A stretch of 64,000 nt of DNA from an uncultured delta proteobacterium. Lineage in GTDB: Bacteria > Desulfobacterota > Zymogenia > Zymogenales > Zymogenaceae. Under the pieces are notes generated by a model. That model had not been told where the DNA came from. It searched no databases and saw nothing but the letters and a program-made list of their open reading frames with translations. The number at the start of each line of letters is the position of its first letter. Position 1 is the first letter of the stretch. The position numbers and the translations under genes were made by a program. Of this stretch, positions 32,386-56,551 are shown in pieces. The DNA is taken from the NCBI GenBank assembly GCA_963735595.1, contig CAVTLK010000002.1, forward strand, positions 128,001 through 192,000. The letters are read 5' to 3'.

Positions 32386-32620
32386 GAACGGCCTTTACTC
32401 CTCTCGAAGAAATAATACGTCACTACGGTGGAATTATCCATATAAAAAGGAGAGAGATCCGGTATAGTCTGCCGGGGAGTCCGCGTTTTCTTGCACCTGG
32501 CAGCTCTTTCTCCCACACGCCGTTCTCAAGGGCCGGTTGCGCCGCCGGGGCCGTGCATCCGGGACATACGCCCCCTGTTGACGAGAATCCTTCGGAATTG
32601 CAGGAGAACCAAGAAAATAC

Positions 32621-32652
32621 TTGACTCGTCGAATGTACAAATATATAGTACA
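32621..32652 (+). promoter_or_regulatory. sigma70-type promoter overlapped by a palindromic operator-like site
   Basis: TTGACT-N17-TATAGT (32621-32649); TGTAC-N9-GTACA at 32634-32652. Confidence 0.55.
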
Positions 32653-32860
32653 AACGCATTGCAAGGGTAATATTAATTAACATTAAGATGCTCTAACGTA
32701 ATAATGTATTTATGGTGACGGTTCTTCGGGACGTTCCGGGAGATGAGTAGCTGAGCTCGACGTCGGTTTGACATTCCCCGTCTTTTTTCCCGTAAGACGG
32801 CCGGTTTCTCCGGGAGGAAGCCCCCTTCCTTTATCCCTGAGTCCTCTGACGTTGTCGGTG

Positions 32861-32909
32861 CGATAGGCGATAGGTAATAGGCAATAGGCGGTAAGCCGTG
32901 GGCCGCAGG
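32861..32909 (+). repeat. Degenerate heptamer tandem repeat
   Basis: CGATAGG CGATAGG TAATAGG CAATAGG CGGTAAG CCGTGGG CCGCAGG. Confidence 0.7.
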
Positions 32910-33138
32910 GCAACGCCACATTTCGGGAAGGTCCCCTCATGTTCAGTCCACGTCGGGTGGAACGCTATTTCGCCGCGGCTTATGATTCCCGTGATGACGG
33001 AAACGACTAACAACGACTGAAACGATAATGTTTCATTTGTGTAACGTGGGCCGAAGACCACCAGAGGTTACCGCGAACTAAGGCGGCGTAATATATTGCT
33101 ATCACTGGAAATTTTGGGAGCGCCGTTTAGGGCGGGAT

Positions 33139-33155
33139 TTGGAATAGTTTTTGCA
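33139..33155 (+). promoter_or_regulatory. Putative sigma54 (-24/-12) promoter of the surface-protein locus
   Basis: TTGGAATAGTTTTTGCA: GG(33141-2)-N10-GC(33153-4), about 85 nt before the first gene. Confidence 0.65.
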
Positions 33156-33239
33156 TTTAATATAAAAGTTTAACGTTCTCATGCAACATGACCACAGCGT
33201 ACAGTACGCGTTATCTGACTGCGGGAGGTATGCACGATA

Positions 33240-35675
33240 GTGAAAAGAATCAGGATTACCGGACGAATCTCGAAGGTGCTCTTATTCTGCGTTCTGCTGT
33301 TTTTACTGCCCGTATTGACATACGCGGTCAGGATCGAGGATGAGGATACCGGGACCGACGTCCTCCTTATGGGGCTGGGAATTCTCAGGGTCAACTACAC
33401 ATCGGTGGAGGGCAACCCCATCATCTTTGAGGACAGCGACCGTGGGCTTCCCGAGTTCTTCTCCAATTCTTCCAGGGCGGATCTTCTGGTCGACGGAACC
33501 GTATATCATAATTACCAGGTGGAAGGCTACCTTCATTACAGAGACATTACCTATAACCTCGAGCCGAACCTTTCGGTGTACCTGAAGATCAAAAGAGATC
33601 TCAATTACCTATCCGTCGGTGATCACCAGGAAGGCGTATTTACCGATACCCTCTTTACCCGTTTCGAACCGGAATTCCGGGGCGCATTGCTCCATATCGA
33701 AGACAAGAACTATGGGCTGGAGGTCTTTGGCGGGGCGGTGCGCGGTAACCAGACCGAAGACGAGATCGATGCCGACGGCAACTCGGGGCCGTATTATACG
33801 TCGTTCTCCCCCGTGATGGCGGCCACCGAATCGGTCTTCATTCGTGTCCGCGATAAGAATAACCCCGCTCTCATACTTAAGAACGATAAGCAGCAGCGGG
33901 GAATCGACTATACTATCGATTATGATACCGGGAAAATAGTATTCACCTACCCGGTGGACTCCACGGACTTCTCCGGAAACCCGATTTCGATCGTGGTCAC
34001 CTATCAGTATGATGATCCCGAAGGCGCCTACAGCCGGTACGTGGCGGGGGGGCGCGTATGGTTCCTGCCCCACGAATATATAAAGATGGGGATGACCTAC
34101 CTCACCAACGGCCCCGTTGACGATACGCTCAATGAAAGCTTCGAAAACCGAATCCAGATCTACGGCACGGATCTAACCATCGATAATAAGAACTCCTTCT
34201 ACCTCGGCGCCGAATTCGCGGCAAGCGACATACCGAACGGCGGCTCGCCGACGGATTTAGCCTACCGGGGGAATTTTACGTGGAGGCCGAGCGCGGATCT
34301 CCGCTTCTGGGGCGGCTACTATCGCGTGGATAAGGATTTTCCGACGTTTGGCTCCACGAGCTTTGATATCGAAAAGATCGTCAAGGAAATTCGATACGAT
34401 GTTCCCTTCGATTTCAGGTCGGGGACCGATATCTATGATCTGAACCCTGACGTTGACGTCGGCCTGGGGACGGATGAGGAATCCTGGGGACTGGCCGGGG
34501 AATACCTGTTTGCACCTAACCACACGCTGACCGCCGGCTATCGCGAGATCAGGGATAATATCCCTTACGACGGGGACCTTCCCCGCACGACGTCCCGCGA
34601 CGTCTACGCGTCTTACCGGTATAATCCGGTGGACCGATTCAACTATTTCGTGGGCGCGCAGTGGATCAAGAGCTTTGACGACCAGAGCCCCCGGCTCGCC
34701 GATACCGAAACCTACCGCCTCATAATGGGGATGAAAGGCCCCCTTGGAAGCTCGCGGATCACCGGCCCGGCCAAGATCGAGGCGGCTTACGTGTATGACG
34801 ATTTCAGGGATCTTGTTGACCATACCGAGAACGAGGCAACCCATTACCTGCTGGCCCGCGTGGACTTCATGCCGGTTCCCGATCTGACGTTTTTCATCGA
34901 GCAGAACGAAATGCTGGTCGCGGGACGGGGAGAGGACGGCGTCGTGCTCAGGGGCGACGCGACCTGGCTTGGGGTAGACTACCGCCGCAAGAGATTACGG
35001 GCCGAGGCGTACTATAAATTCCTGCAGGAGTACGATTATACGTTGGGGCGGGAGGTTACCCGGGAGCACCTGGCTTCTGCGATCGTTACCTACAAGCCGA
35101 CCGATACGGTGGGCGTACGCCTAAAGCTCGAGGTCGGGTTCAACACCGATGCATCGACCCTTCCCGAAACCACGAGCACCGATTACATCGCCGAGGCCGA
35201 GATCGTCTGGGATATCAGGCCGGACCTGGTCCTTTCCGTATCATACGCGCTGGACACCTCCGCCGATGAAACCGGCGGCGCCGGCGACGAGGCTCTGGAA
35301 GACGAGGCGGTGGTCATGATCGAGTACTCTCCCGATCCGGGCGATCTATCCCTCTACGGCGAGTACCGGTTCGAGCGAAGCTACCTGAAGACCGATCCGC
35401 TGTCCGCCGAGGAAACCAGGACCAACACCTACATTATCGGGGGGCGGTATCAATTCCTCCCCAAGTGGGAAGTCGTCGGCGGATTCAAATACGCCGGGAC
35501 AAACGGCGCCCTCGAGAGCCATAAAATGGATACGTTCGTTGAGGTCGGGTACGATCTCTTCGACTGGCTGAAGATGTCTCTCGGATACGAATACCAGGAA
35601 ATGACCGACCGCGAGGCGCCCGATACCGATTACACCGCCAATATCGGCTACCTGAAAGCAACGGGTAAGTTTTAA
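33240..35675 (+). CDS. Putative outer-membrane beta-barrel protein with SprA-like motif
   Basis: Signal peptide; GPYY...SVFIRVRD...RGIDYTIDYDTGKIVF...NPISIVVTYQY; long run of amphipathic aromatic-rich strands; C-terminal Phe (GYLKATGKF). Confidence 0.75.
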   Translation: MKRIRITGRISKVLLFCVLLFLLPVLTYAVRIEDEDTGTDVLLMGLGILRVNYTSVEGNPIIFEDSDRGLPEFFSNSSRADLLVDGTVYHNYQVEGYLHYRDITYNLEPNLSVYLKIKRDLNYLSVGDHQEGVFTDTLFTRFEPEFRGALLHIEDKNYGLEVFGGAVRGNQTEDEIDADGNSGPYYTSFSPVMAATESVFIRVRDKNNPALILKNDKQQRGIDYTIDYDTGKIVFTYPVDSTDFSGNPISIVVTYQYDDPEGAYSRYVAGGRVWFLPHEYIKMGMTYLTNGPVDDTLNESFENRIQIYGTDLTIDNKNSFYLGAEFAASDIPNGGSPTDLAYRGNFTWRPSADLRFWGGYYRVDKDFPTFGSTSFDIEKIVKEIRYDVPFDFRSGTDIYDLNPDVDVGLGTDEESWGLAGEYLFAPNHTLTAGYREIRDNIPYDGDLPRTTSRDVYASYRYNPVDRFNYFVGAQWIKSFDDQSPRLADTETYRLIMGMKGPLGSSRITGPAKIEAAYVYDDFRDLVDHTENEATHYLLARVDFMPVPDLTFFIEQNEMLVAGRGEDGVVLRGDATWLGVDYRRKRLRAEAYYKFLQEYDYTLGREVTREHLASAIVTYKPTDTVGVRLKLEVGFNTDASTLPETTSTDYIAEAEIVWDIRPDLVLSVSYALDTSADETGGAGDEALEDEAVVMIEYSPDPGDLSLYGEYRFERSYLKTDPLSAEETRTNTYIIGGRYQFLPKWEVVGGFKYAGTNGALESHKMDTFVEVGYDLFDWLKMSLGYEYQEMTDREAPDTDYTANIGYLKATGKF

Positions 35676-35696
35676 ACACCAAATGGGTTTTGATAT

Positions 35697-38623
35697 ATGA
35701 AATCACTCAATACCATCCACCATTGGCGTCGTTCTTCTCGCCGTTGGATTGATGCTCTTTCCCGTACGCCGCTCGTCTCGCACGCCGGGACAACGGCGGG
35801 GCTCGTCGGACAATGCGGTATCACGACGGTGTGCGCTGTCAGACCAAAGTTTCGATCTGTCGGCCGACCCGGCCGCAACGCGACCATCGAAGCAGGCAGA
35901 TCCGAGCCATCACCTTTTTTCACCGTTGATGTCGAAGGGACAGCCACTTCTACGGCTCGGTTATGCTCTCGGTGTCCGGACTGCCTTCCCAGTGACGGCG
36001 ACCTTCGACGATAACCCACTAGGGGGCGACGACAACGAGCCTAATTACGTCGGGTGGACACGACGACGGGTGCGGCTGCAGCAATTATGAGACGAAGCTG
36101 CGTATCGACCTCCACCGGCGACGCGTGCCCGGGGACCTATACGCTGACGATAAGCGGAACGAACGAGGAAATCGGTACGAGACGGACGACCGTCACCCTG
36201 GTGGTGGATAGGGAGCGGGGGAGGGGACTTTCACCTCTCGGCGTCCCCGTCTCTGATGGAAGTTCGGCGGGAGAGACCGCCGAGTATACGGTTACCGGGG
36301 TCTTTTCCGGATGCGACCGCTCCGTCGGCGGACTTGTCGGCAGAGGGGCTCCCGTCGGAGGCGTCCGCGTCGTTTGACCCCCAAACGATTAGCAGGGAGG
36401 CTGATTCGTCCGCGCTTACCATCCGGACCGGCTTAGCGACGCCTGCCGGGACGTATACCGTTACCATCGTCGGTCTGAGCGGGGATCTGCGACGGACGAC
36501 GACGGTAATCCTGAAGGTCACCAAGCCGCAGAACTTTGCACTCTTGGCTAAGCCGACCAAGCTGGAAATCAAGTGGAGATAAGGCCGATTTTGCGGTTAT
36601 CGGTGAATTTACCGAAGGTTTACGGGCGAGGTGAAACTCTCTCTTAAAGATACACCGTCCGGCCCGTCGGATCGCTTCAGCCGGAATCGATATCTCCCAA
36701 GGTCATCGACTCCGTCCTGACGATTACCACCACGCGGATACCGAACCCGGCACGTACGAGATCACCAAAAAGGATCAGCGATCGCAGGGCGACCGGACGA
36801 CACGGTGACGCTCACCGTCACGGAGGGGGAGGGAATTTTACGCTCTCGTCCGACCCGACGTCGCGGAGATTGAGGCAGGCGACATTGCCGACTATACGAT
36901 TACCGGTACGTTCGACGGGTGTTTCGGCGGGCCGGTCGAGCTGGTGGTTGACCGGGAGAAGTTAACACTCCCGGACGGCGCCACGTGGTTCTTCCAGCCC
37001 GATGCGTCCATAGACAAGACCGATCCCTCGGCTGTCCTGAAGATAGTGACCGACAAGAAGACACCCGCAGGCACCTACCCGATCCGTATCGTCGACGCCG
37101 AGACCGGGAAAAAGGAGATCTGGGTTGACCTCGTCGTAAAGGAAGTTATTCAGGACTTCTCGCTTTCGGCAAATCCGACCTCCCGTGGTATCGAACCGGG
37201 AGAGACCGCCACGTACACGATCACGGTCAACGAGGGCGGGTCGCTGCCTCCCTATGAGGTGAGCTTCCCCGAGCCCTCGGTCACCGACGGGCTGACGGCG
37301 ACGATAGACCCGATGTCGCTGCCCCCGACCTCGAACACCAACTCGGTAACCCTCACCGTCCAGACGGACGCGACCGTCGAGGAAGGGATATACTCCATCA
37401 CCGTGGAAGCAAGCGGGGGCGGGCATACGGCAAACGTCACCGTGACCCTCGCGATAAATGAGCCGCCCGTTATCGAATCCGCGGGCCTCTCCGTGGATAA
37501 ATCGGTTAGCCCGTCGTCGGCCAAGGTAGGCGGGATGCTGCTCTATACGGTAGAGATCAGAAACACCGGCCGCGGTGTGCTCAAAGAAATCGTCGTTCGG
37601 GACCACATGCCGGCCGGCGTCGGTTACGTGAAGGGAAGCACCACCATTGACGGGAGAAAGGCCACCGAGCCTTCCGGGACAACGACGCTCATCTGGGAAA
37701 TCGACGAGATCGACGGGGGGGACAGCGTAACCCTGAAGTATCACGGGGTGGTCAAGCCCAATATATCCCGGGGAAAAAGCACCAACACGGTCACGATAAG
37801 CGGAACGGACGCGACCGGCAGGACGCTCACCGCCAGGGCGAGCGCCGATCTTGGCGTCTCGTCGGAGACGCTGGATAGAAAAGGAAAGATAAAGGGGAAG
37901 GTCTTCATCGACGAGAACGGCAACGGCCTGAAGAACGTCGACGAGGAAGGGATCGCCGGCGTCTGGATCATCATGGAATCGGGAGAGCGCACCAGCACCG
38001 ACGAAGAGGGCATGTTCCAGTTCGACGAGGTAGACTCCGGCCAGCACCTGGTCGCCGTTGACGTGCGCAAGCTCTCCAAGAAGTACTTCGTCGTCGGAGA
38101 CTCCTCCAAGATCGTCTCGCTCTTTTCCGGCGGTACCGGGAGGACCTATTTCGGCCTCGGACGGACCGGCCCCACGAAAGAGGAGCTGGAGGCGCTGAAA
38201 AAGACCGAGGAGGAGAAGTTAAAGAAGGAGGAAGAGGCCCGCAAGGAGGAGGAAAAGAAGAAGGCAGAGGAGGAAAAGGAGAGAAACGCCCCGAAGGGGA
38301 CCCTCTTCGGCAATGTCTTCGTAGACGCCAACGACAATAATATATGCAACCCCGGGGAAAAGCGCCTCGAAAAGGTGACGGTGCTTCTGGACTCCGGGAA
38401 GAGGTCGGTGACCGACAATGTGGGCAATTACCGCTTCGACAAGGTAAAGGAAGGGCGGCATACCCTCTCCATCCGGGAGGATCAGGAGTTCAAGAAGAGT
38501 TACCGGCTGTCAAAGAAAGAAAAGATCACCGTGAACGTGAAGGCTTCCACGAACAACAGGAAGGATATTCCGGTGTTGGACAAGAGTAAGCTGAAAATCA
38601 ATATCGAGTTAACCGTACGATAA
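35697..38623 (+). CDS. Ig-like repeat + DUF11 + two SdrD-B-like domains protein (5' part heavily frameshifted)
   Basis: Intact frame 36944-38623 has FSLSANPTSR..PGETATYTITV, a DUF11 domain (LSVDK..YTVEIRN..VRDHMP..YVKGST) and two GxVFxDxNxN..GE SdrD-B motifs. Fragments of the same F.LSA.P/TPAGTY repeat occur in shifting frames from 35697. Confidence 0.75.
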
Positions 38624-38642
38624 AGCCCGTTGAGGATATTTA

Positions 38643-41600
38643 ATGGATACGATTAGATTCAAACCGGTCACCATGCTTCGGATAACGGGGATACTCCTCG
38701 TGCTCCTGCTCGGGGTCTTCTCCCTGGCGCAGGATATCGGCCTGACGGGCCCGTCGGGGCTGGAGGTCAGCGTCTGCGGCGACGGCCAATTCACTATCAC
38801 GGTTGAAAACGGCGATACCGACATTTCGAATCTGGACATCTACGCGGCCGTTGTGACGGGCGGCGGCAGCGTCATACCCACCAGCGATTTTACGCTGGTA
38901 TATGAATCCGGCACGCCTAATCCCGCGCCCGACTCCCATACGCTCACCCCGGCGACGGTGACATGGTCGGATCGGACCCTTGCCGCGGATGCGACCTGGA
39001 CCGGGAGCCTTACCGTCAGCCCGCACTGCGACGCGTTCTCCAACCGGGAGCTGGTCGTCATGGTCAGCTACGACTACTTCGACGGTGTGGACGTAGTGCA
39101 CGTCGTGGAGACCCCGGTTTACTCGGGCTCCCTGCAGGTGCTCATGCCCAACCTGGTCGTTGAGCTTGACCCCGAGGTCCTCTACGGCATCGCCCCGGGC
39201 GAGACCGCCAGCTGGCCGGTGTACGTATCCAACACCGGCGACGGTGTCCTTTCCGACGGAACGCTGACGGCCGTGCTCGCCCCCGGCGGGGGGTTAGATA
39301 ACCTTACCTTCACCCCGCCCAGCGGCAGCCCGGCGCCGTTGGCGGCGCCCATACCGATGCCTGATCTTATTGCGGGAGCGCCCAGGACGTTCCTGGGCAC
39401 GGTGTCTGCCGATCTCACGGTGGGCACCGCCACCTCCTGCCGGGACATCTACGTTACCTTTACCGGCAACTTCGGGTGCGAGAGCCTCAACTGCCAGCCG
39501 GACGTCGTAGTCACCGGCAGCGTCAACCTGGAATACCGGACGCCCAACCTGACCTATTCCTTCAGCCCGGACCCCATATCTACAATACCCTACTGCGGCA
39601 GCACCAGCGTTACCGTCACCATCGAAAACCCCGGGGCAACCGCGGGCAACATCGTCGGCCTGCAAATGACGGTGGACGCCTTCGGCATGGAATACACCGT
39701 CACGGGTGACACCTCCTCCGAGGTCGACGTGCTGGTCGATACCGGCTCGAACATTTTCAGGTTCGTCGATGCCGCCAACCATAGTCTGCCGGCGGTCATC
39801 GGCCCGGACGACGAGTTCGATTTCACCTTCGATGTCTCGCGCGACGGGTGCGCCACGCTGGACTGCCGGTCATTAATATTCATACCGCAATTCTATGACG
39901 ACTGCGGCGACGTGTTCGAGCCGCCAATCCAGGAACTGCAGATCTCGGCCTACCCGCCGGCCACGTCGGACTATGACCTCACCGTAACACCGGACGCGGG
40001 CAATCCGGCCATCCCGGACGAGGGGGCCACACTCGGCTACACGGTCACGGCGGTCTATAACGCCGAGTCCGGCGAGACGGACGCGACGGCCGACATCGTC
40101 GTAACCTACCCCGCGACCTTTTCGATCGCGGCCGGCACGGACACCGGCTACACGGTCACGGGCGCAAACGAGATAACGTGGGAAGACGAGGACTTCAGCC
40201 CGACGGGCTGGTCGGTTGCCAAGCGGCTGGTACTAACGGCGCATTACGCCGGCACCAGCTGCAACAGCGATTTCACGCTCCACTTCGCCGTGGAGCCGAC
40301 CTCCGGCATGTGCGAGGGAGAGTGCCCGCCCGAGGGGGCCACCGCCAACCTGGGCCTGCTGAGCGATACGATGCTGGTTGTCATCAAGACCGCCGCGGGC
40401 GGGGGCGACGGCATTATATATGTCGGCGAACCTCTGGATTTCACCATCAACGTCTACTATTACGGGCCGCGGCTTTTGATCGGCGGCAGCCTCGTTACGC
40501 CGCCCGCTTTCGTTACAGATACGCTGCCGGCCGGCTTCTGGCTCGAAGAAAGCCTCCCGCCTGACCCGCCTGACCCCGTGGTGAGCCCGGACCCGGTCGA
40601 CACTACCGCCAATCCGCTAACCTGGTGCCTGGACGCGGGCGATCTATCGCAGACCGGTCCGGTCACGTTCACCTACTCGCTGGAGCCGATCCCGTTGGGC
40701 TACCCGGGCTACGATCTCTGCCTCTGCGGTCATACGATCACCAACACCGCGACGGCAACGCTCAATACCACCGGGGCGGCGCCCTGCGCCGTGCCCAATA
40801 CCTCCCCGTTTGGCTGCAGCGACGAGGCGGTGTTGAGCTTCGCCTATAACTGCGATTACGGCACTCCGGCCACGGGCTTTGAGGTCGAGAAGACGGCCGC
40901 GCCGGCCTCCGCGGAGCGGTGCGACTACGAAAACGGGATCACGTTCACGAACACAATCACCTTCAATCAGGCCTACTCGAGCTGGAACGACATCACGTTC
41001 ACTGATAACGGCAACGTCATCGGCATGGCCTTTAGTGAAGCGATACCCCTGAGCGGCACAGCCAATTTCTCCATCACCGCCGGGCCTTCGGCCGGTGCGG
41101 ACGAGGATTACCTAATAACCCTCGGGAACCCAGTAGTGTTGGGTTCAAGCGGCGTTGGACTGACCGGCGGACCCCAGGCCGGCGACGTCCTGGAGATCAC
41201 CTATACCCTCTACTTCTCGAGCGCCGCTAATACTACGGGGACCACCGTCGTCAACTGGTCCGATTATACCGTTGCCACGGTTCCCACGGTGTGTGACGAC
41301 GGCACCAACGAGTTTCACGCCGGGGCGTGGGTGACGCCGATAAACCCGGCCCCCACGGTGACTATCTCTGACTACTGCCACTACGACGACGAGGGACACT
41401 GCACGTTCGTCGTCAACCGGTGCGACAGTTCGACCTTCAGGCTCTATCTCACCAGCACCAGGGTCGAGCGCGACGTTATCGTCCGGATTGAGCTGCTGGA
41501 CAACTACACCTTTGACAGCGCCGTACCAACGTCCTTCGTCAATATAAACAGGCCGGACGGAAGCCCGGTTGCCGCCTTTGCACCCGACACCTCCACGCCG

Positions 41601-44600
41601 GGAGAAGTCACGTGGAACCTCGGCGACCTGGGCGCGATGGGCAGCGACAGCTACCTCCTGTTCAACCTTATGACTGCGTGCTCCGGCGGCACCGAGACGA
41701 ACGCCACCGTCGAGAGCAGCGGGTGGTGCGGGGACTACGACTATTCCAGCAGTCTGTCCTACCGGGCCTCGCGGGGCGAGCGGGAAGGAAAGCTCCTCCT
41801 CAAGAAGACGCCCGACGTCATCTATATCAAGGACCGGGGGGCCAACCTCCCCTGGACGATCTACGTCACCAACCCCGGCAGCGGGCCGGCAACCAACGTC
41901 GTCGTGACCGATACGCTGGGCGCGGGCATCAGCTATGTCGACGGCTCGGCGACGCTCGACGGCGCCCCGGTAACCCCGGTGGTTGTCCCTTCGGCGTACG
42001 CCAGCGGCGTGGAAACTACCGTCACGTTCACCATCGATGAGCTTGCCCCCGGGACAACCGCGACGATCACGCTGACGGGCCACGTGGAGGACTGCGAGAA
42101 CAGGACCAACCGCGTCCGGGCGACGTGGGGATGCTACGACGAGGTAACCGGCTTTGACTACTGCGGCGAAGCCCTGGCCGGCCCGGTGACCGTCCAGGAC
42201 CTCGGCACGCGGGTAATCATCAACCGGCACCAGGCGGACGACATCAACACCTGCGGCGGGACCTCGTTCGTAACGGTCGTGTTCAAGAATATCGGCAAGG
42301 CCTACGCCTACGACATGCTGCTGACCGAGACGCTGCCCCTGGGCGTCGAGTACGATACGGCCTATCCCGGCGGCTGGACCGCAGTGGATGCATTCGGCAA
42401 CAACCTGGCCGCCTACCTGGCCTTTGCCGACGGCAGCAATCACACGACGGGCGGCGGCACCCTTACCTGGACCTTTACAAACAGCATGAAGCCGGTGGAC
42501 AACAGCGGCGAGGGAGACGAGTTCACCATCCGATTCCCGGTAAAGATCGTCGGCTGCGACTATACGAGCGGCGCCTCGATGATGGCCAACCTCAATTACG
42601 ATACCCCGTGCAGCACGGCTACCACCCCCGCGCAGGACACCGTCTCGACCGTGTCGGCTCCGGTACTGGAGGTCACCAAGGGACCGGATATCACCGCGGG
42701 CGACCCGAGCGACCCGATCATCTGGGATATCGAGATCACCAACCCGTCCGGTTACACGGCCATGGCCGTTTTCCTCTGGGACATTCCCGCCCCGGCGAGC
42801 TACTTTTCCAGCGTTACCATCAACGGGCTTTCCGGCTCCGGCACCGAGATCGACCCCTGGGATATCGGGAATATTGCTCCCGGCGACAGCATGCTGTTTA
42901 CGGCACGGGGGATCCTGAGCGACTGCTACCCCACCACGACGGGCAGCAACACCGCCTGGGTCGAGTGGTGCGAGGACTGCAAAACCAGCGCCTCCAGCAA
43001 TATCTCCATGATAAACTCCACGCCCCATGTCACGCCCGGCATCGACCTGGACGTGGACTACTGCGGGGGGAGCGTCACCATCACGCTGGTAAACACCGGC
43101 TCCCGGGCCTACGACATTGTGCTGACGGACGTCTTCCCGGCGGGCTTCGAATATACCGTGGGCTCCGCGGAAATCACGTCGTCGGAGGGAAGGACGTTTA
43201 GCGAGGCGAACGAAGAGCCGCACTACGACGTGCCGACCCGGACACTGACCTGGGACAGCAACGCGGCTACCGCGCCGGTCTTCATGGATACGGCCGGCAA
43301 TACCTATATAGAGAAACTCGAAACCCTGACCATCACGTTCAATCTCGAAAACGAGATGGAGGCGGGAGAACAGTGCACGTCAACCTTCGGGGATACGCAT
43401 ACCGTTTCCATCCACTATGAGGACGCCTGCGACGATACGTATGACGAGACGACGACCGGAACCGCCACGATCCCGGCCTATCCGAACCTGACCGTAACCA
43501 AGGAGCTGGACCCCGTCTACGGGGTAATCGGGGAGACCGACCCCGCCCTGTGGCACGTCACGATAGACAACAACGGCGGTCCGGCCTACGGCACCATCAC
43601 CATCGTGGATACGTTCGGGTCAGGCTGGGACATGACAACAGTCAACGCCCCGGCCACCGTAAACGGCACCGGCACGCGGACGATAGACACCGGCGCGCGC
43701 ACCGTCACCTGGAGCGGCGTGAGCCTTGATACAGGCCCCAGCTCCGAGACGATCGACATATGGGTCCAGCCTCTCAGCACCAGCCCCGAGTCCGACCTGA
43801 GCAACTCCGTGATGGTAACCGGCGCCTGCATCGGCGGATGTAACTACGAATCGGCCGGCGCCACCCAGAACATCGTCCCCGGCCACAGCGAGATCGAAAA
43901 GGTCTACGACAGGGCTACCGCCACGATCGGGGAAACGGTCCACGTGACGATTACCGCGAGCTATTTTGGCGCCGGTACACCCTACGAAGACGTCCTGGTC
44001 GTCGACACGCTGCCGACAGGCCTTACCTACGCCGGCAACCTCACGATAAACGGGACCCCGTCGTCGATCACGCCGGTCGGCCAAACCCTTACCTGGGACC
44101 TCGGGGATTTTCCCGGAACCCAGGCCTATGTTATCGAATTCGATACGTTTGTAGCCAACACCGCCGATACCGACAACGGAGACACGCTGCCCAACACGGC
44201 GACGACCACCTACCTTGTCGGGGCGACGTCGTACACGGATTCTTCCACGACCACCCTGACCATCACCGAGGCGCTGCTGACGATCGACAAGACCTACGCG
44301 GTGGTAGGGGGCGGCCCGGTGGAGGGAAGTGCGGTCATCGAGTATACCCTGACGCTGGCAAACACCGGAACGAGCACGGCGTTTGACATAGACGTCGCCG
44401 ATACGCTGGGCGCGGGGCTCACCAGTCCGACCTGGGTATCGGGCGGCAACAGCCACGATTTCTCCGGCTTCCCGGGATCTGCGCTGCTGTGGCACGTCAA
44501 CAGCCTTGCCGTGGGCGCGTCGACGACGCTCGTCTACCGGGTAACGGTAGAAGACAGCGTGACGCCCTGTTCGATGCTGAACAACGAGGCGATAGTGACC

Positions 44601-47600
44601 TGGACGAGCCTCAACGGGACCCCCACCTTGCCCGCCGAGGAGCGGACGGGCAGCGGGACCCCGGCATACAACGACTACCGGACCAGCGACACGCTCCAGG
44701 TGCCGGTGGACACGGTCGCGTCCATCACCAAGAGCCTGGTGCCCCCAACGGACGGTTACTGGACGATCGGCTCGGAGGTGAACTACCTGATCCGGGTGAT
44801 GCTGCCGCGGACCACTATTTCTGACCTGACGGTTACCGACGTCATCGGCCTCAGCGGTAATAACAGAAACGGCCTGAGATACGAGGGAGCTACCTTCGTG
44901 GCCCCGGGCGGCGGGGCCCTTCCCACCGCGCCGGGCGAGAGCGTTTCTTCGCCCAACGACGGGACGGCCCCGGTCACCGTGACCTGGACGTTTAGTAATA
45001 TCCCCGGGTACGACGCGGCGGCAAGCGGCCCCGACCGGTACCTGTGGATCGCGGTGGAGGCGGTGGTGACCAACGTTGCCGAGAACAACGACGGCGACGT
45101 CATCCCCAACAGGGTCACGGCGACCGACAGCGGCGCGTGCCTGACCTGGCCGGGCGGCAACAGCGCCAGCTCGGCAAACGTGACCGTTCGGGAGGCGGGC
45201 CTGACGATCGACAAGACCTACGCGGTGATAGGGGCGACTCCCGTTGAGGCGGGCGCGGTCATCCGGTATACGCTGACGCTGAGAAACACGAGCACCGTCT
45301 GCACGGCCCATGATATAGACGTGGAAGACACGCTTGGCGCGGGGCTCGCCAGCCCGGCCTACGTATCCGGGGACGTCGCCGGCAATATCTCGCACGATTT
45401 CTCCGGCTTCCCGGGGTCTGCGCTCTTGTGGCATATCAACAGCCTCGCCCCGCTTGCGTCGGTGACGCTGGTTTACGACGTGACGGTAGAAGACACCGTG
45501 ACGCCCTGTTCGATGCTGAACAACGAGGCGGTGGTGACCTGGACGAGCCTGAACGGGTCGCCCGCCGAAGAGCGGACCGGCAGCGGGACGCCGGCGTGGA
45601 ACGACTACCGGACGAGCGACACGCTTTCGATACCGGTGGACACGGTTGCGTCCATCACGAAGGACCTGGTGCCCCCGGCGGACGGTTACTGGACGATCGG
45701 TTCGGAGGTGAACTACCTTATCCGCGTGATGCTGCCTCGGGCGGAGATTTCTGACCTGACGGTGACCGACGTCATCGGCACGGCGGGCCCCACGAACAAC
45801 GGCCTGAGATACGTCGGCGCTACCTTCGTGGCCCCGGGCGGCGGGGCTCTTCCCACCGCGCCGGGCGAGAGCGTTTCTTCACCCAACGACGGGACGGCCC
45901 CGGTGACGGTTACCTGGACGTTTGCCAACATACCCGGGCACCTGGCGGACCCGGACGAAGCCGATAACGACCGGTACCTGTGGATCGCGGTGGAGGCGGT
46001 GGTGACCAATGTTGCCGAGAACAACAACGGCGACAGCATACCCAACAGGGTTACGGCCACGAGCAGCGGCGCGTGCCTGACGTGGCCGGGCGGCAACAGC
46101 GCCAGCTCGGCAAATGTCCTGGTGCGCGAGGCCAACATTACAATTGACAAGACCTACGCGGTGATAGGGGCGACTCCCGTTGAGGCGGGTGCGGTCATCC
46201 GGTATACCCTGACGCTGAGAAACACGAGCGCCGTCTGCACGGCCTACGACATAGACGTCGAAGATACTCTGGGCGCGGGGCTCACCGGTCCGACCTACGT
46301 ATCGGGGGACGTCGCCGGGAATATCACGCACGATTTCTCCGGCTTCCCGGGATCTGCGCTCTGTGGCATATCAACAGCCTCGCCCCGCTTGCGTCGGTGA
46401 CGCTGGTTTACGACGTGACGGTGAGAAGACACGCGTGACGCCCTGCTCGATGCTGAACAACGAGGCGGTGGTGACCTGGACGAGCCTGAACGGGTCGCCC
46501 GCCGAGGAGCGGACCGGCAGCGGGACGCCGGCGTGGAACGACTACCGGACCAGCGATACGCTTTCGATACCGGTGGACACGGTTGCGTCCATCACGAAGG
46601 ACCTGCAGCCCCCGGCGGACGGTTACTGGACGATCGGCTCGGACGTCTACTACCAGATCCGGGTGATGCTGCCGCGGGCGGACGATTTCGGACCTGACGG
46701 TGACCGACGTCATCGGGACGGCGGGTAACGCCAACAACGGCCTGAGATACGAGGGTGCAACCTTTGTGGCCCCGGGCGGCGGGAGTATCTCGCCCACGTC
46801 AACCAATATTTCGACGCCGAACGACGGGACGGTACCGGTGACGGTGACATGGGAGTTTGCCAACATACCGGGATACGACGCGGCGGCAAGCGGCCCCGAT
46901 CGGTACCTGTGGATTATAGTGCACGCGGTGGTGACGAACGTCGACCAGAACAACGACGGCGACAGCATCCCCAACACCGTCACGGCGACGGATACGGGCT
47001 CGTGCCTTACCTGGCCGGGCGGCAACAGCGCCAGCTCGTCCAACGTGATCGTGCGCGAGGCGGGCCTGACGATCGACAAGACCTACGCGGTTATATCGGC
47101 CTCCGGCCTTGTGGAAGCGGGCGCGGTCATCCGGTATACCCTGACGCTGGAAAACGAGAGCACCGTCTGCACGGCTTACGACATAGAAGTGGAAGACACG
47201 CTGGGGCCGGGACTCACCGGTCCGACCCATGTATCCGGCGGTGACAGCCACGATTTCTCCGGCATCCCTATTACGTTCCATATAAACAGCCTCGCCCCGG
47301 GCGCCTCGACGACGCTCGTCTATGACGTGACGGTAGACAGCTAACTCCGACGTGGTGGCCTGCTCGACACTGGACAACGAGGCGATGGTGACCTGGACGA
47401 GCCTCAACGGGTCGCCCGCAGAAGAGCGGACGGGCAGCGGGACGCCGGCGTGGAACGACTACCGGACCAGCGATACGCTCCAGGTGCCGGTCAATACGGA
47501 CGCGGCTATCACCAAGACGCTCACGTCCGACCCGACCGTGACGATCGGTTCGACGGCGACCTACGACATCACCGTTACGCTGCCGCAGGCCCAGATCACG

Positions 47601-50600
47601 GACCTGACCGTTGCCGACGTGATCGGCGTGGCCGGTGACGCCAACAACGGCCTGAGATACGTCAGCTCTACCATCGAGGTGCCGGGCGGCGGGGCCATTA
47701 CGCTTACCCCCACCGTCTCCACGCCGAACGACGGGACGGGCCCGGTCACCGTGACCTGGGAGTTTACCAACATCCCCGGGTACCTGGCGACCCCGGCCGC
47801 CCGCGACCTGGTGATCCACGTCACCACGGACGTGCCGGACGTCGTTGAGAACAAGGACGGCGACGTCATCCCCAACACCGTCACGGCCACGGATACCGCT
47901 TCGTGCCTGATCTGGCCCGGCGGTAACAGCGCCAGCTCGGCAGATGTGACGGTGCGCGTGCCGGCCCTGACGATAGAAAAGAGCGTGACCGAGATACTCG
48001 GCGCCGACGGCGTGCCGCGCGCCACCGTCGAGCCGGGCAGCGTGGTGACCTACACGATCACCGTCAACAACGTCGGCAGCGGGGAGGCCAGAAACGTTAC
48101 CGTCTCCGACACCCTGCTGCCCGAGTTCGAGAACCCGCTCCACGTCTCCGGCGGGGACAGCCACAATTTCTCCGGCAACCCGCTCACGTGGACCGTCAAC
48201 AGCATACCGGGCAACAGCTCGGCAACGGTAGTCTTCTCCGTGACGGCGACCAGCGCCATCACCGAGGGCGGCCTCTACATTAACTGCGCCTCGGTCGTCG
48301 GCGAGGATATCCTGGGCAACGTGATACCGGCCGACAACACCGACCATGTCTCGGCCGACACGTACGACACCGCCACCGGCACCGACAGGTCCTGTGCGCA
48401 GGTAACCGGGGCGGTCCCGACGCTGACGCTCGACAAGGAGATACTCTCGGTCAACGGCGTCGCGTATACCAGCGACATGACCGTTCAGCCCGGCGATTAC
48501 GTCATATACCGCGTCACCGTCACCAACACCGGGACGGGCACGGCCTACGACCTTAACGTAACCGATACCTTATCCGAGGGGCTTGGCTACGGCGATTACC
48601 TGGCGCCGCTAAGCGATACGCCGCCGACCCTGGGGACCGGAACGTATACGAGCGCCACATGGAGCGACTACTACGACGCGACGACGTAACCCCGGTACCG
48701 GCAGGATCGCTTACCGCCCATACCCATGGTAACGCCCCGGAGGACACCGGCGGCACGGTTCCCGCGACCATCGGCACGCTCATCTGGGACGGCTCGGACA
48801 TCCGTCCGCTCTCGCTCCCGTCCTCGTTCGCCGAACCCGAACGTTACCGGCATCGTGCTGCCGGGCGGCCAGACCTACACGATCGAGTACGTCGCCTACG
48901 TAAACGGATCGATTATCCAGCATTCGGTGGCTGAAAACCTGGCCGATGCCGAGGCAAAGGACGGATGGGGGACGACGGTGCCGTGTAATGAAGACCACAC
49001 GTCTATCAACACGCGCGAGCCGTTCTTCGTCACCGAAAAGACCATCACCCAGATCGACGGCGATCCCACAAACACGCTGGTGGCTGTGGTCGGCAGCATC
49101 ATCGACTACTCGTTTACCATAACCAACGTCGGTGAGGGCGACGCCCACAACGTCAACATCTTCGACACGCTGCCGATCGGGTTTGTATACGTCCCGGGCA
49201 GCGCCAACATCGGCGAACCGACGATCTCGCTTGACGAGCGAGACCTCACCTGGCTTGTCAACGCGGACATCGCCTCGGGCGGGATCTATACTGTCACGTT
49301 CCAGGCGGAGGTGACCGACGGCACGTCGGGCGGCACCATGTACAACGTGATGTGGGTCGAGGGGCTGGACCTCAGCGATCAGCCGGTCACCAAGGACGGA
49401 TCGGGGATCACACCGCTCGATACCGACGCCGACGACCTGGACGACGTACCGGTCGAGGTCGATATCCCGAACGTGCCGCTCATCCTCGTGAAAGACGTAA
49501 CACCCCGCAGTGTCAGCGCCGGCGCGGTCGTGCACTACACGGTTACCTTTACCAACAACCGGAAGATCAGCTTCTATGATGCGACTATCACAGATACGAT
49601 GCCGCACGGCTTCACGTATCTACCCGGCACGACCCTGCTCGATGGCGTGCTCATCGCCGATCCGACCGGGAACAACCCCTACGTGTTCTCTATCGGAACG
49701 GTTGGGCCGGAGAGCGTGGCGAGGCTTGATTATTACGTGCTGGTGTCGCAGCTGCCCGTCACGGCGCGAACGTCAACTGGGCCGTGCTCAACGCCCACGA
49801 CGGCGCGGGCAAGCCCATCAGCCTCAAGGATCGGGCGACGGTAACGGTAACGGACGACAGCTTCTTTGATTTCGAGAAGTTCCCGTTCCTGCCCCGGTTC
49901 TCCCGGCCGACGGCCGCGCCCGAGGTTCCCCGCGTGCCGGAGAAAGGAACGTCCGCGTCCCGAGTGCTGCCTGGTCGTGACGGCGATTCCCGTTCGCTCC
50001 CAGGATTTCGGCGATACGGTGCCGGGCCGCCCGGAGATCTACTACCAGACCGACATAGCGATGTACGCCGCAACGGAGCTCCTGGTGACCGAAAAGAGGA
50101 TGACGCCGTGGCTTGAAGTGCAGGGATTTGACCCCGAGCGCACATACCTTATGACCGGCCTCTACAACCGGATGATCACCAAGCTCGGCGAGTACGCCCA
50201 GTATAACCTCGGGAACGTTGTCATGGAATCGCTCCTGGGTATCCCCCTTGAGTACGCACCGGGTGTCCTGGAGAAGGCCCGCCGCGAGGGCACGACGCCG
50301 GAGCGGGCGGGAATCGAACTCACCAGGGACCTCGCCGAAAGCGGCGGGCCTGTCCGCGGTTCCCGACATCCAGCCGATATTCCTCGAATACTTCGGTTCC
50401 TACCCCTACCTGCATGAGCGGATAGCCGAAGACAAGCTCGCCTGGGAAGAGGGGCTGATGGATAAGAACATCATGCCGGCCGCCCTCGGCTTTACGCTGC
50501 TCCGGGAGGCGGGCCAGATCGAGATGTTCCTGGCCAGCACCGATCCCACCGAGCGGTTCTTCGGCCTGCTGCTGCTGACCCAGGCGATCGAAAAGACCAG

Positions 50601-53600
50601 GTCCATATCGACGGACCTGGCGAAGACCGCGGAGTTCTCGCCGCCGGTAAAATACCTGCCTCACTTCAGCAGGATCGAGGTCGAAAAGGGCAGGGGCCTG
50701 ACGTGGCGCACGACCGACGAGACCAGCACGCTCTATGACCATGCGTCGGTCCTCTGGGGCCTTTCCAAGCTCAGGAGCGTGGCACTGCATTCGGCCGACC
50801 CCGATGTCAGGGCGCTGGTGCCCCAGATCACCGAGCGGATGAACGAGATCTACCGGGCCATCGAGGCGATACACTACGATGAACAGAGCAAGGGCTTCGT
50901 GAGCGTTCATGCCCCCGGGAAGGGAGATGATGAAAAGAGCATAGCCGCCAAGGACCTCGCCTTTACGATCCTGGCGATGCGGTCGGTCCTGTTTGACAAC
51001 CGCGACCTGTCGATCAATACGATCGACCCGAAACGCAAGATCGTCGAGATCGCCGATTTCATGATCGAAGAGCTCATGAGCGACGATGGAGGCGTCTATA
51101 CCGCATACAATTACGCCGACGGAACCCCCGTCGTGGGAGTGAAGCGGAACCTGGTCGACAACGCCCTGGCAGTCCGGGCGCTCCTTTCGGCTTACGTCGT
51201 CACCGAGGACAGGAAATATAGGAACGCCGCGCTCAGGGTCTACGCGTTCATGGTCAAGGAACTCTGGTATGAAGACCTCATGATCTTCATCGACGAGGAG
51301 GACCCGGACTACGAGGTGGTGCTGACCCCGCAGTCCATCGGCGCGCTGATAGGGGCCCTCAGGGATCTGGTGCTTTACGGCGACCCGAAAATGCGGCACG
51401 ACTATCTTGACCGGATGTCGTACACGACCGACCGGGTGCTCGACCAGTCCCAGCTTCAGCTCTACGAGAACCGGTTCTTCCCGTGGCATGCGCCTATCAC
51501 GATCGTCCCGAAAGACCCCAACGGGAGGTCCTACATCAAGCCGATCGTCACGACGATCCGCGACAAGGGGATATCCCACGACCTTGCCCCGATCCTCGTG
51601 CGCAAGATGGTCCTCAACATAACGCCTACCGGCGCCATTGCGTCCGGCAACGAAGACGCAGTCTCCGACTGGAACAAGTGGAAGGCCGACCTGCGCTACG
51701 AAGTCCCCGACGTCATTGCGAGCGCGGTTATTGACGACACGTTTGTAACCGACGAAGGCATGTACTTCACGACGCTCACGCGGGATTATCAGCAGAACCT
51801 GAACGCGGACCTCCCGGCGTTTAACCCGTATCATACGGACCCGGGCATCCAGGTCTACGGCGCGTTCGTGGGAGGCGAGGTAAGCAGCTACAACGTGAAG
51901 AACCTGACCCTCAATTCCGGTATGGGGATCGGCCTTTCCGAGTCCGAGCTGGTCAGGAGGCTTGCGAAGAAGGCCGGCAAGAGCCCGGAGAAGTACCTGA
52001 CCGATTACGTGGGAGCGCGGGCGCCGAAAGACGCCGCGGGAGATGATATCCTTTCACGGTTCATTAACAGGGTGAAGGGCGCGGTTGGGCTTGCCGCGGG
52101 CGGGCGGTTCACCGATATTATCTACCTTGAATATACCTCATCCAAGCCCTTCTATACCGAAGGTATCTCCGACGGGTGGGACGAGAAGACCTTTGATGAG
52201 AAGCTTACGGTCTCCTCCATGTCCTCGACGATGGTGCGGCAGATCATGTTCATCGTGGATAGCAACGGACGCACCGATCTGTCGGCGTCGGATAGGTTCG
52301 TGAACGACGTGATAACGATGTCGGTTGCGGCAAAGCGTGTCGTTCTCGGCGAGATCATCCGCAATGCCCAGAAAGACGGAATCGCCGGCGTCCCCCACAG
52401 CTACATGATGGTCCCGGATGAGAAGGAAAAACGCTCAGCCGTCACAATCGCGGAAAAGAAATCGACCCTCTTTGACGACACGTTCGCGATCTGGGCCGTG
52501 GCCCTCTTTATGGATGCCGAAAAGCAGGGACTCTTTGACGACTACCGCGCGGTCATGACGGACGTGACCGACGACGAAGCGGTCCTTGCCGCGCTCATCG
52601 ACGCGCTCATCGCCCACCATTACAACGCCGAGTACGGTACGCTGGTGACCGGCAGTGTCAACACCGTGGAGGTCTCAAAGGCCCTTGACATGCTGACGAG
52701 AGCCGCCGAAGTAATGGATGACGGGCCGGCCAAGGAGAAGCTCACGGGCCTGATCACGGAAACAGGCGGACTTCATCATGACACGGCTTGCGACCGATAC
52801 GGGATTTGAACCCATGATCGGGCTGGGCGGCGAGACAATCCCCGCCGACCTCTGCGAGATGGAGACCCTCGGGACGAACGTCTTCCCGATTCTTGCCCTC
52901 GTCCGAACGTGGGAGGTTACCGGCGACGAGAAGTACCTGAACAGGGCCCTTGTCTTCTTCGATCGTTTCGACGAAAGCAAGTGGGACCAGGAAATCGGGC
53001 TCTATCTCTCTTCAGGGACTATCTATAAGGCGACCGATGTGTCCAAGCTTGAGCTCAACTACAATAACCAGGAGCTCATCGCGGCGGTACTCCTGATCTC
53101 CAAGCTTCAACCGCACCTTTCCGGGGAACGGAAGATACTGTCGGCCTACCACATGACGACCTTTATGAACCGTATCATGGAGATCGCCAGCGTCGAGCGC
53201 TACCCGGGCAACGAAGACTCAGGCAATACGATCTACTCGCCCGAGATTATCAGGAGCGTCAAGATAGTCCTGTCCGAATCCAGGGGAGTCGGTAAGCCGG
53301 GAGACATATTCACCAACCGGATCGTTATCGACAACGACTGCTACGACGGGATCAGCCGGCCGCTTTCGCGCATCAGGATCGAACAGACACTGCCCGACGG
53401 CTTCCACTACGTGCCCGGCAGCACCCGGTTCAACGGGGCGGCCGGTCCCGATCCGATCGGCAGAAAGACCCTCAACTGGTACTACCCGCTGCTGAACGGC
53501 AGGAACCGGCTGGTTATCGATTACCAGGTCGTGGCCGATCCGACCATCGCTGAAGGCTCATATACGGCCACCCTTGACGTTATGGCGTTTTCGGGATACG

Positions 53601-53731
53601 GAGGCGACTACGTCCTCTGTGAGGATCGTGACATAGCGGCAACGACCCTTATTGTCGCAGACCCCTTTGCCGAAGTAGTGGAAAAGGCGTGTGTGCCGTG
53701 CGATGTCGGCAGGAGGGCCCTCTCGCGATAG
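38643..53731 (+). CDS. Giant secreted DUF11-repeat surface protein with C-terminal duplicated alpha/alpha-toroid-like domains (about 5,000 aa; multiple frameshifts after 46360)
   Basis: Signal peptide; ORFs 38643-46400, 46363-46728, 46700-47344, 47352-48689, 48659-48934, 48726-49844, 49784-50116, 49866-50417, 50218-52809 and 52778-53731 overlap or abut, and several resume mid-domain. The single-gene interpretation is inferred. Confidence 0.72.
44277..47966 (+). repeat. Four tandem intragenic repeats of about 0.9 kb, each encoding two DUF11-like domains
   Basis: Units start at 44277, 45201, 46137 and 47066 (xTIDKTY) and share long identical stretches such as AEERTGSGTPA(W/Y)NDYRTSDTL and WPGGNSASS. 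Confidence 0.92.
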
Positions 53732-53772
53732 ATGTTCCTGCCGCACCGCGTGGTATGACGTATGGTTCTTTC

Positions 53773-53806
53773 AAGGCGGGCGCCCCAGACGGGCGCCCGC
53801 CTTTTT
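53773..53806 (+). terminator. Intrinsic terminator ending the surface-protein locus
   Basis: AAGGCGGGCGCCC-CAGAC-GGGCGCCCGCCTT-TTT. Confidence 0.9.

Positions 53807-53959: not shown

Positions 53960-56551
<2,592 letters not shown>

Follow-up and report, generated by a model that had tools for sequence, protein, structure and literature searches.

The 64,000-nucleotide stretch of DNA analysed here (the window) comes from an uncultured delta proteobacterium of the family Zymogenaceae, phylum Desulfobacterota (contig CAVTLK010000002.1, positions 128,001 to 192,000), and lies within contig C2 of a 3.63-Mb genome of five contigs that is 93% complete. It contains a real, conserved operon of three genes encoding a stand-alone outer-membrane beta-barrel, a partner protein with immunoglobulin (Ig)-like repeats and a giant fibre. 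Judged by its genes, the operon is best read as a motor-less display system, related to SprA, the pore of type IX secretion (T9SS), in which the gene 2 product would link the barrel and the fibre. Specifically, the barrel would serve as the exit for the fibre and the partner would keep it at the pore, a proposal to which we assign a probability of roughly 0.58. The barrel-plus-partner unit, which is found again in many bacterial phyla, is a candidate for a new protein export route.

The three genes are co-oriented and separated by gaps of 21 nt (genes 1 and 2) and 19 nt (genes 2 and 3), as the original prediction made from the sequence had it. That prediction also placed a sigma54-like promoter at the start of the operon and a strong terminator at its end, and both elements were located (Table 1); rpoN is present on contig C1. 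The GG-N10-GC spacing of the promoter site, sought by eye in the 120 nt upstream of the locus, also occurs in four of eight relatives (G001, G002, G003 and G005) and was not seen in the other four (G004, G006, G007 and G008). The order of barrel, module gene and giant recurs in L037, L041, L043, G094 and G127.

The gene 1 product possesses a signal-peptide-like N-terminus, 783 mature residues and a C-terminus ending in KATGKF. The intact frame agrees with the initial description of a signal-peptide barrel terminating in Phe. The AlphaFold2 model, built from an alignment of 14 sequences (pLDDT 73.8, pTM 0.58), has 34 long strands in its DSSP list, a small inserted beta domain at residues 170-257 and a long loop at 364-412. 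Most of the strands are amphipathic, with alternating hydrophobic residues, and the barrel is predicted to have 32-36 strands, about 34. Pfam gave only marginal barrel matches for this protein and NCBIfam gave none. The marginal Porin_4 match (27.5 bits, cut-off 27) is confined to the last strands, residues 615-787, and PDB sequence searches with the barrel and with the 14-sequence barrel profile returned no match. When the model was compared with 48,161 solved chains, MtrB had the highest Z score among the 50 matches listed (17.8, root-mean-square deviation (rmsd) 11.9, 454 residues aligned). SprA, with a Z score of 16.4, had both the longest alignment and the lowest rmsd among them (509 residues, rmsd 7.4, model 36-811 on SprA 132-2401). 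TonB-dependent receptors have 22 strands and an N-terminal plug, and porins have 16-18 strands. The barrel is neither, an identity that would have counted against the original prediction: it is far larger, matches no plug family and aligns with the best examples of these classes at an rmsd of 8-15 Å over 220-410 residues. Two other barrel-like proteins of the genome (C1:278117-278893 and C5:527805-528587, in frames of 544 and 571 aa) give weak matches to the barrel profile that miss the signature region described below.

The kinship with SprA was also evident when a profile of 117 barrel modules was aligned by hhalign with a profile of 24 SprA proteins. Two colinear blocks were recovered, the first placing barrel residues 40-185 on SprA 136-279 (E 1.6e-3) and the second 181-356 on SprA 685-869 (P 95.9, E 5e-9), while the reversed-profile control reached E 0.087 at best. 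The matched part comprises N-terminal strands and the small insert domain, which bears the signature GPY...SE.V.IR.RD...RG.DY.IDY..G. The SprA model TIGR04189 has its sole match in the genome within gene 1, a weak one at 33894-33995 (E 0.043, 11.4 bits, profile positions 619-650 only) that falls below the 200-bit cut-off for a full-length SprA/Sov; a homologue of the barrel, P0027, matches the same model at E 2e-6. SprA has ~2,400 residues compared with 811 for the barrel, in which the ~400-residue SprA insert between the matched blocks and most other insertions are absent. The cap-forming insertions also appear to be absent, judged by length. These profile comparisons make the barrel a distant relative of SprA, compact in form, and not a SprA orthologue. 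Genomes bearing SprA contain in addition an unannotated family of ~1,150 aa (P 99.5 to the barrel family, P 94.4 to SprA) that links the two and is possibly a third giant-barrel branch. Its members (loci L090-L097, e.g., L097:5846-9373 on the minus strand) have the signature insert domain in common with SprA and the barrel family.

SprA/Sov is likewise a very large single-chain barrel, with 36 strands (PDB 6H3I; Lauber et al. 2024, PMC10994853) compared with the ~34 predicted here. In contrast to the T9SS, the putative cargo shares a locus or a polypeptide chain with the barrel, and the genome has no native carrier of the PorP family. The type A C-terminal domain (CTD; TIGR04183) had no match at E 1 in this 93% complete genome. 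The only above-cut-off match to the PorP family (TIGR03519) lies on a block of contig C4 with 41-45% GC, compared with contig averages of 55-58%, and the family is represented in none of 40 relatives, a search that did not include PorV itself; the gene was rejected as a native component. The low-GC block (C4:1-60000), which also carries a second rpoN (31946-33370) and porKLMN-like open reading frames (ORFs) recognized by eye, no family search having been made for motor or ring genes, is likely Bacteroidota DNA that was mis-binned or mis-joined.

The barrel is a member of a widespread family that is closely coupled to a DUF11+SdrD-B module. A full HMMER search with the 14-sequence profile (E ≤0.001) yielded 2,147 clusters at 50% identity, compared with only 16 proteins from a word-indexed search. 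The signature motif could be placed in 147 of the best 150 homologues, with a median of 644 residues after it, and 92 have at least 700 residues before it. A domain scan that covered 28 of these 150 detected DUF11 in 21/21 long homologues, SdrD_B in 17/21 and OmpA or SLH in several. When the module itself was used as a profile, 85 of 90 long homologues proved to have the full DUF11+SdrD-B module upstream of the barrel. Adjacency across genomes had been proposed as a check on the original prediction, and at loci chosen by barrel-only queries the module is fused or adjacent in 38 of 43 cases (25/28 and 13/15). Among the five exceptions, three are cut by contig ends, L038 has no module nearby and L042 is interrupted. 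In the last (L042:7678-12112), the N-terminal piece of the barrel homologue is split from the rest by a 574-aa ORF, presumably a transposase from its resemblance, and no module gene is nearby. Excluded from the count were the plasmid loci L058, L059 and L061, which were found with a module-containing query, L045, a duplicate of L018, and G004, in which the contig ends just past the barrel; 11 of 14 plasmid matches were examined. The link between barrel and module spans phyla, although related loci within the count are not independent.

Barrel-positive loci include those of Vibrio, Sinorhizobium, Phyllobacterium, Pelagibacterium, Novosphingobium, Eleftheria and two cyanobacteria; annotations there frequently call the barrel hypothetical or a TonB-dependent receptor. 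Full barrels are found in 8/9 genomes of the host family and in 20/151 genomes of the phylum, after nine of 29 matching genomes were dropped (E above 1e-30, signature region missed). Adhesin-type domains (F5/8 type C, CBM96, CshA repeat) stand at the N-terminus of several fused forms, with peptidoglycan-binding OmpA or SLH domains adjoining the barrel. In a midpoint-rooted FastTree phylogeny of the 117 barrel modules, gene 1 belongs to a clade with 16 members, most of them stand-alone barrels (support 0.84). The system is widespread with one or two genes, and the three-gene form is a minority version in which it is split. In the host genome, all 12 DUF11 matches lie in this locus.

Gene 2 encodes, in order, a signal peptide, Ig repeats, the DUF11+SdrD-B module, a Lys/Glu linker, a second SdrD-B domain and a terminal beta strand. 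The linking module is recognized at 201 bits by a profile made from the fused homologues, and the last SdrD-B with its terminal strand is conserved in the host family, in Desulfobacterales-labelled loci and in family f15. On this comparison, gene 2 is what forms the front of the barrel protein in the usual, fused arrangement, here detached as a gene of its own. The proposal that it acts as an adaptor is therefore supported, as its module lies upstream of the barrel in nearly all long homologues. Its description as an Ig-repeat protein with DUF11 and SdrD-B was correct as to both domains, but the frame is garbled in this assembly. The number of Ig repeats differs among genomes, with total lengths of ~630-1,300 aa, and in L016, L018, L026, L039 and L041 the repeats match part of NCBIfam NF058595 'invert_tail'.

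The giant encoded by gene 3 consists of a signal peptide, a Thr/Gly/Pro/Val-rich stalk of DUF11 domains with paired Cys residues, a head of ~1,100 aa and a last DUF11 domain, and it contains matches to isopeptide-type domains (TIGR04226). Its first two domains score 65-103 bits in 5/5 giants of other lineages, compared with at most 37 for internal repeats. The head appears to comprise two tandem (alpha/alpha)6 toroids. In the model of the G007 orthologue (pLDDT 59), the first toroid, residues 24-550, has the fold of the (alpha/alpha)6 glycan-active enzymes (GH105, GH88, GH76 and AGE) at Z 20-24 in VIA-align. Its best neighbours are GH105, cellobiose 2-epimerase and GH76 (Z 22-24, rmsd 3.3-3.8, 8-13% identity), and the second toroid is read from the internal repeat alone (P 99.3). 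Based on the predicted fold, the head is probably glycan-binding or glycan-modifying. It is present in 7/9 genomes of the host family and in 0/31 other genomes of the phylum. A sequence search of the head against the PDB gave nothing better than E 0.085, and a search for shorter homologues, which covered lengths of 30-398 aa, gave three fragments. P0019, a 727-aa signal-peptide protein, contains a single copy of the toroid with 23% identity to the head.

The fold of the head, which resembles GH105, GH88, GH76 and the AGE epimerases, would also fit a system in which the barrel imports large solutes or glycans and the capture or processing of polysaccharide at the surface falls to the fibre with its glycosidase-like head, in a manner similar to SusCD. 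The 'TonB-dependent receptor' label given automatically to some homologous barrels and the marginal Porin_4 match point the same way. Such a role is very improbable given that no TonB plug family was matched, that most family members have varied adhesin stalks instead of such a head, and that the operon includes no transporter or catabolic genes.

Comparative sequence data strongly support the core of the proposed arrangement, that of barrel, adaptor and fibre. All three proteins would be exported across the inner membrane by Sec, in line with their signal-peptide-like N-termini, and the barrel would be inserted by BAM, the machinery for beta-barrel assembly, consistent with its C-terminal Phe and the presence of Omp85. 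The module of gene 2 would then bind the barrel, as in the fused homologues, where it would do so in cis, and the conserved N-terminal domains of the giant would dock on the C-terminal SdrD-B and terminal strand of gene 2. From there the DUF11 stalk would project outward with the double (alpha/alpha)6 head at its tip. The process would be a one-off display rather than an energized, repeated secretion, and apparently neither a motor nor a PorV-type shuttle would be needed; cargo that is kept in or on the pore may do without a motor, in line with what the locus lacks. For SprA, the available part of one study describes substrate loading as energy-free and release as requiring energy (PMC10994853).

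Docking by the N-terminus, with the head at the tip, is favoured because the N-terminus of the giant and the C-terminus of gene 2 are shared across lineages and because of the arrangement in L040. In that locus (L040:7533-16931), a stand-alone barrel is immediately followed by one frame (at least 3,133 aa) in which the gene-2-like DUF11+SdrD-B module comes with LysM and precedes a DUF11/SdrD fibre. The restriction of the head to the host family, as opposed to the lineage-wide N-terminus, likewise favours this orientation. The same export system could operate with the opposite polarity, in which the N-terminal stalk is outside, the last stalk DUF11 occupies the pore and the double toroid serves as a periplasmic stopper that keeps the fibre attached. 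The last stalk DUF11 is indeed the best match to the module within the giant (71 bits, and 89-103 in relatives, compared with at most 67 for other repeats). Moreover, in fused homologues the next domain after the module is frequently OmpA or SLH, alphaproteobacterial fibres end in the module, and the head is Lys/Glu-rich, nearly free of Cys and the most conserved part of the giant within the host family. This polarity is nevertheless unlikely. The N-terminus is common to all three-gene giants examined but the head to one family only, the fibre follows the module in L040, and the fold neighbours of the head are mostly glycan-active enzymes.

The barrel might instead be only an anchor or envelope scaffold, with the fibre exported by other means, such as type II secretion or vesicles, or acting as a periplasmic tether. 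The OmpA, SLH, AMIN, SH3 and LysM domains fused to family members, the lack of an energy-coupling gene within the locus and the presence of one secretin gene in the genome would suit such a scaffold. It is rather improbable that the barrel does nothing more, because a pore of ~34 strands, kin to a proven translocon, far exceeds the needs of an anchor, and a fibre of more than 20 Ig domains is unlikely, on general grounds, to fit across the periplasm. In addition, the sole secretin match of the genome (C2:36239-36719) is split over two frames.

Several observations weigh against the proposal that the barrel exports a fibre held by its partner. The similarity to SprA spans ~320 of the 783 mature residues; towards the C-terminus, two thirds of the barrel have no significant profile match to SprA. 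The pTM of the barrel model is 0.58, and the Z score of MtrB (17.8, rmsd 11.9) is slightly above that of SprA. Two barrel loci, L038 and L042, are without a module nearby. Alphaproteobacterial two-gene loci have the fibre N-terminal to the module, the opposite polarity. The head is 45-59% conserved between G007 and G002, compared with 39-44% for the N-terminal stalk, and is richer in Lys and Glu than the stalk, which would fit a periplasmic anchor as well. Lastly, the frames of genes 2 and 3 are interrupted in the present assembly.

Together, genes 2 and 3 contain ~15 or more frame changes. The frame of gene 2 jumps repeatedly from 35697 to ~36810, and its longest open piece is 604 aa. Gene 3 is open for 2,585 codons (38643-46400) and then undergoes nine frame changes up to 52762, the first of them in ~930-nt tandem repeats. 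The protein of about 5,000 aa originally assigned to gene 3 is thus a reconstruction: the span of ~5,029 codons is as described, but it is not one open frame here. The frames are open, in the identical gene order, in four short-read relatives (G001, G002, G006 and G007). Intact gene 2 products are 967 aa in G001, 862 aa in G002 and 748 aa in G006, while the giant is complete at 4,389 aa in G007 and at least 4,269 aa in G002, where it is cut by the contig end. Based on these comparisons, the frame changes are probably an artefact of the assembly. The copy could instead be a pseudogene that is decaying in the host, as the sheer number of frame changes would suggest. Among 12 ordinary orthologues tested, a single frame change was seen, and it traces to the query genome. 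This alternative has a modest chance of being correct. The breaks in gene 2 are concentrated in its 5' repeats, which are hypervariable, and those in gene 3 begin in the ~930-nt tandem repeats. The locus is also broken in G003, a seven-contig relative, and in G005, but at other places. Moreover, a short-read contig of a different strain has one base fewer at 35711, which restores the signal-peptide frame of gene 2, and no damage affects the barrel, the promoter, the terminator or 2,585 codons of gene 3. Confidence in an artefact was held at this level because ordinary genes are mostly clean and because reads of the same strain were not found, the best sequencing run sharing at most 22% of words with the query. 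The four read sets that were compared represent other strains and do not cover 35750-36790.

By the features tested, the operon is not a member of the T9SS, type V, type I or chaperone-usher systems. The original prediction, which recognized no ABC transporter or TolC, POTRA, autotransporter, usher or CTD in the locus, agrees with the Pfam and NCBIfam scans. Its broader claim that the module fits no named secretion type holds for the features tested, but has to be qualified by the relationship of the barrel to SprA. As in type V secretion, a signal peptide, a passenger and a C-terminal barrel may occur in one chain, or a barrel gene may stand beside a giant adhesin gene, and there is no obvious motor. 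The barrels of types Va and Vb have 12 or 16 strands. In contrast, the barrel described here is predicted to have ~34, its passenger is a DUF11 Ig stalk, and an OmpA domain of periplasmic type can sit between passenger and barrel. No autotransporter, POTRA/ShlB or Omp85 family was matched by the pieces of the locus in Pfam and NCBIfam, and the single Omp85 gene of the genome is on contig C5.

The chaperone-usher systems similarly combine the genes of a large, dedicated barrel and of fibre proteins with Ig folds, and by analogy the isolated conserved terminal strand of gene 2 could be a donor strand. Here, in contrast, the fibre is one polypeptide, FimD aligns to the barrel at Z 14.0 with an rmsd of 11.3, and no usher or chaperone was matched by the locus pieces in Pfam and NCBIfam. 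With regard to type I secretion, the locus pieces gave no match to ABC, membrane fusion or TolC proteins in Pfam, and the giant has a signal-peptide-like hydrophobic N-terminus.

The fibre resembles the DUF11/CLIPPER adhesins and grappling hooks, which are likewise described, in the available parts of the sources, as giant beads-on-a-string DUF11 stalks with isopeptide-type domains. DUF11 is a stalk domain of surface adhesins (10.1101/2025.08.19.671072; 10.1101/2025.04.25.650565), and a 6,596-aa DUF11 protein has been proposed to form a grappling-hook filament (10.1101/2025.08.19.671072). Unlike the giant, GhlA of Litorilinea is described as lacking a signal peptide (10.1101/2025.08.19.671072). 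The available parts of this paper and of the isopeptide survey (10.1101/2025.04.25.650565) describe no dedicated barrel, and the double toroid head is specific to the host family.

The SprA-related barrel system is apparently undescribed; no account of the barrel family was found in the literature searched, of which only part was available and which did not include subscription journals and bioRxiv supplements. The available portion of a recent census and the abstracts of other papers regard SprA as the largest barrel known and the T9SS as specific to Bacteroidota or the FCB group; in the census, predictions of 27-40 strands were set aside as errors or unlikely, with nothing above 26 kept (10.64898/2026.03.07.710327). 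SprA-related giant barrels make up over 2,000 clusters and occur in Desulfobacterota, Proteobacteria and Cyanobacteria, and look-alikes from Armatimonadota are in the Atlas. The chances are about even that they constitute a translocon family of several phyla that shares a common ancestor with SprA and exports folded, isopeptide-stabilized DUF11 fibres through a barrel of ~34 strands via the module, without the motor and shuttles of the T9SS; the present operon would be its minimal form. If so, this would explain how many Gram-negative DUF11 adhesins without a known sorting signal arrive at the surface. It would also add a new secretion type, a living model for the origin of the T9SS and a testable route to that origin. 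The present locus is useful because its stand-alone barrel of 783 mature residues and separate module gene mark the domain boundaries and provide a small structural target.

Table 1. Features of the operon and their coordinates in the window.
Feature	Position	Strand	Evidence
Putative sigma54-type -24/-12 promoter site (GG-N10-GC)	33139..33155	+	Sequence
Gene 1, 811-aa stand-alone outer-membrane beta-barrel, C-terminal Phe	33240..35675	+	Intact frame, AlphaFold2 model
SprA-related N-terminal barrel part, aa 40-185 and 181-356	33357..34307	+	hhalign with SprA profile
Gene 2, partner protein, span of ~975 codons	35697..38623	+	5' third frameshifted in this assembly
DUF11+SdrD-B linking module, fused to the barrel in most homologues	37484..38110	+	201 bits, profile from fused homologues
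Gene 3, giant fibre, ~5,029 codons	38643..53731	+	9 frame changes in this assembly
Two Cys-containing Ig domains at the N-terminus, candidate docking end	38730..39647	+	Common to other three-gene giants
About four tandem DNA repeats, ~930 nt each, 74-81% identical; first frame changes here	44267..48000	+	Self-blastn, frame map
C-terminal head, two tandem (alpha/alpha)6 toroids, GH105/AGE/GH76-like fold	49959..53224	+	Structure match, internal repeat
Final DUF11 domain, past the head	53279..53581	+	Profile match
Intrinsic terminator, 13-bp hairpin and T run	53773..53806	+	Fold of -30 kcal/mol

The operon is flanked 5' of the promoter by a divergent 499-aa gene (30886-32385), which we take from its sequence to be sugar-kinase-like, and 3' of the terminator by an intact 863-aa gene (53960-56551) that is presumably ClpB-like. 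In locus L061, on plasmid pTT27 of Thermus thermophilus HB8, no barrel-profile match above 25 bits was obtained, and the SprA model matches weakly somewhere in T. thermophilus. The locus contains a five-gene DUF11 cluster (TTH_RS10905-10925) with the linking module and a hypothetical gene of 1,795 aa.

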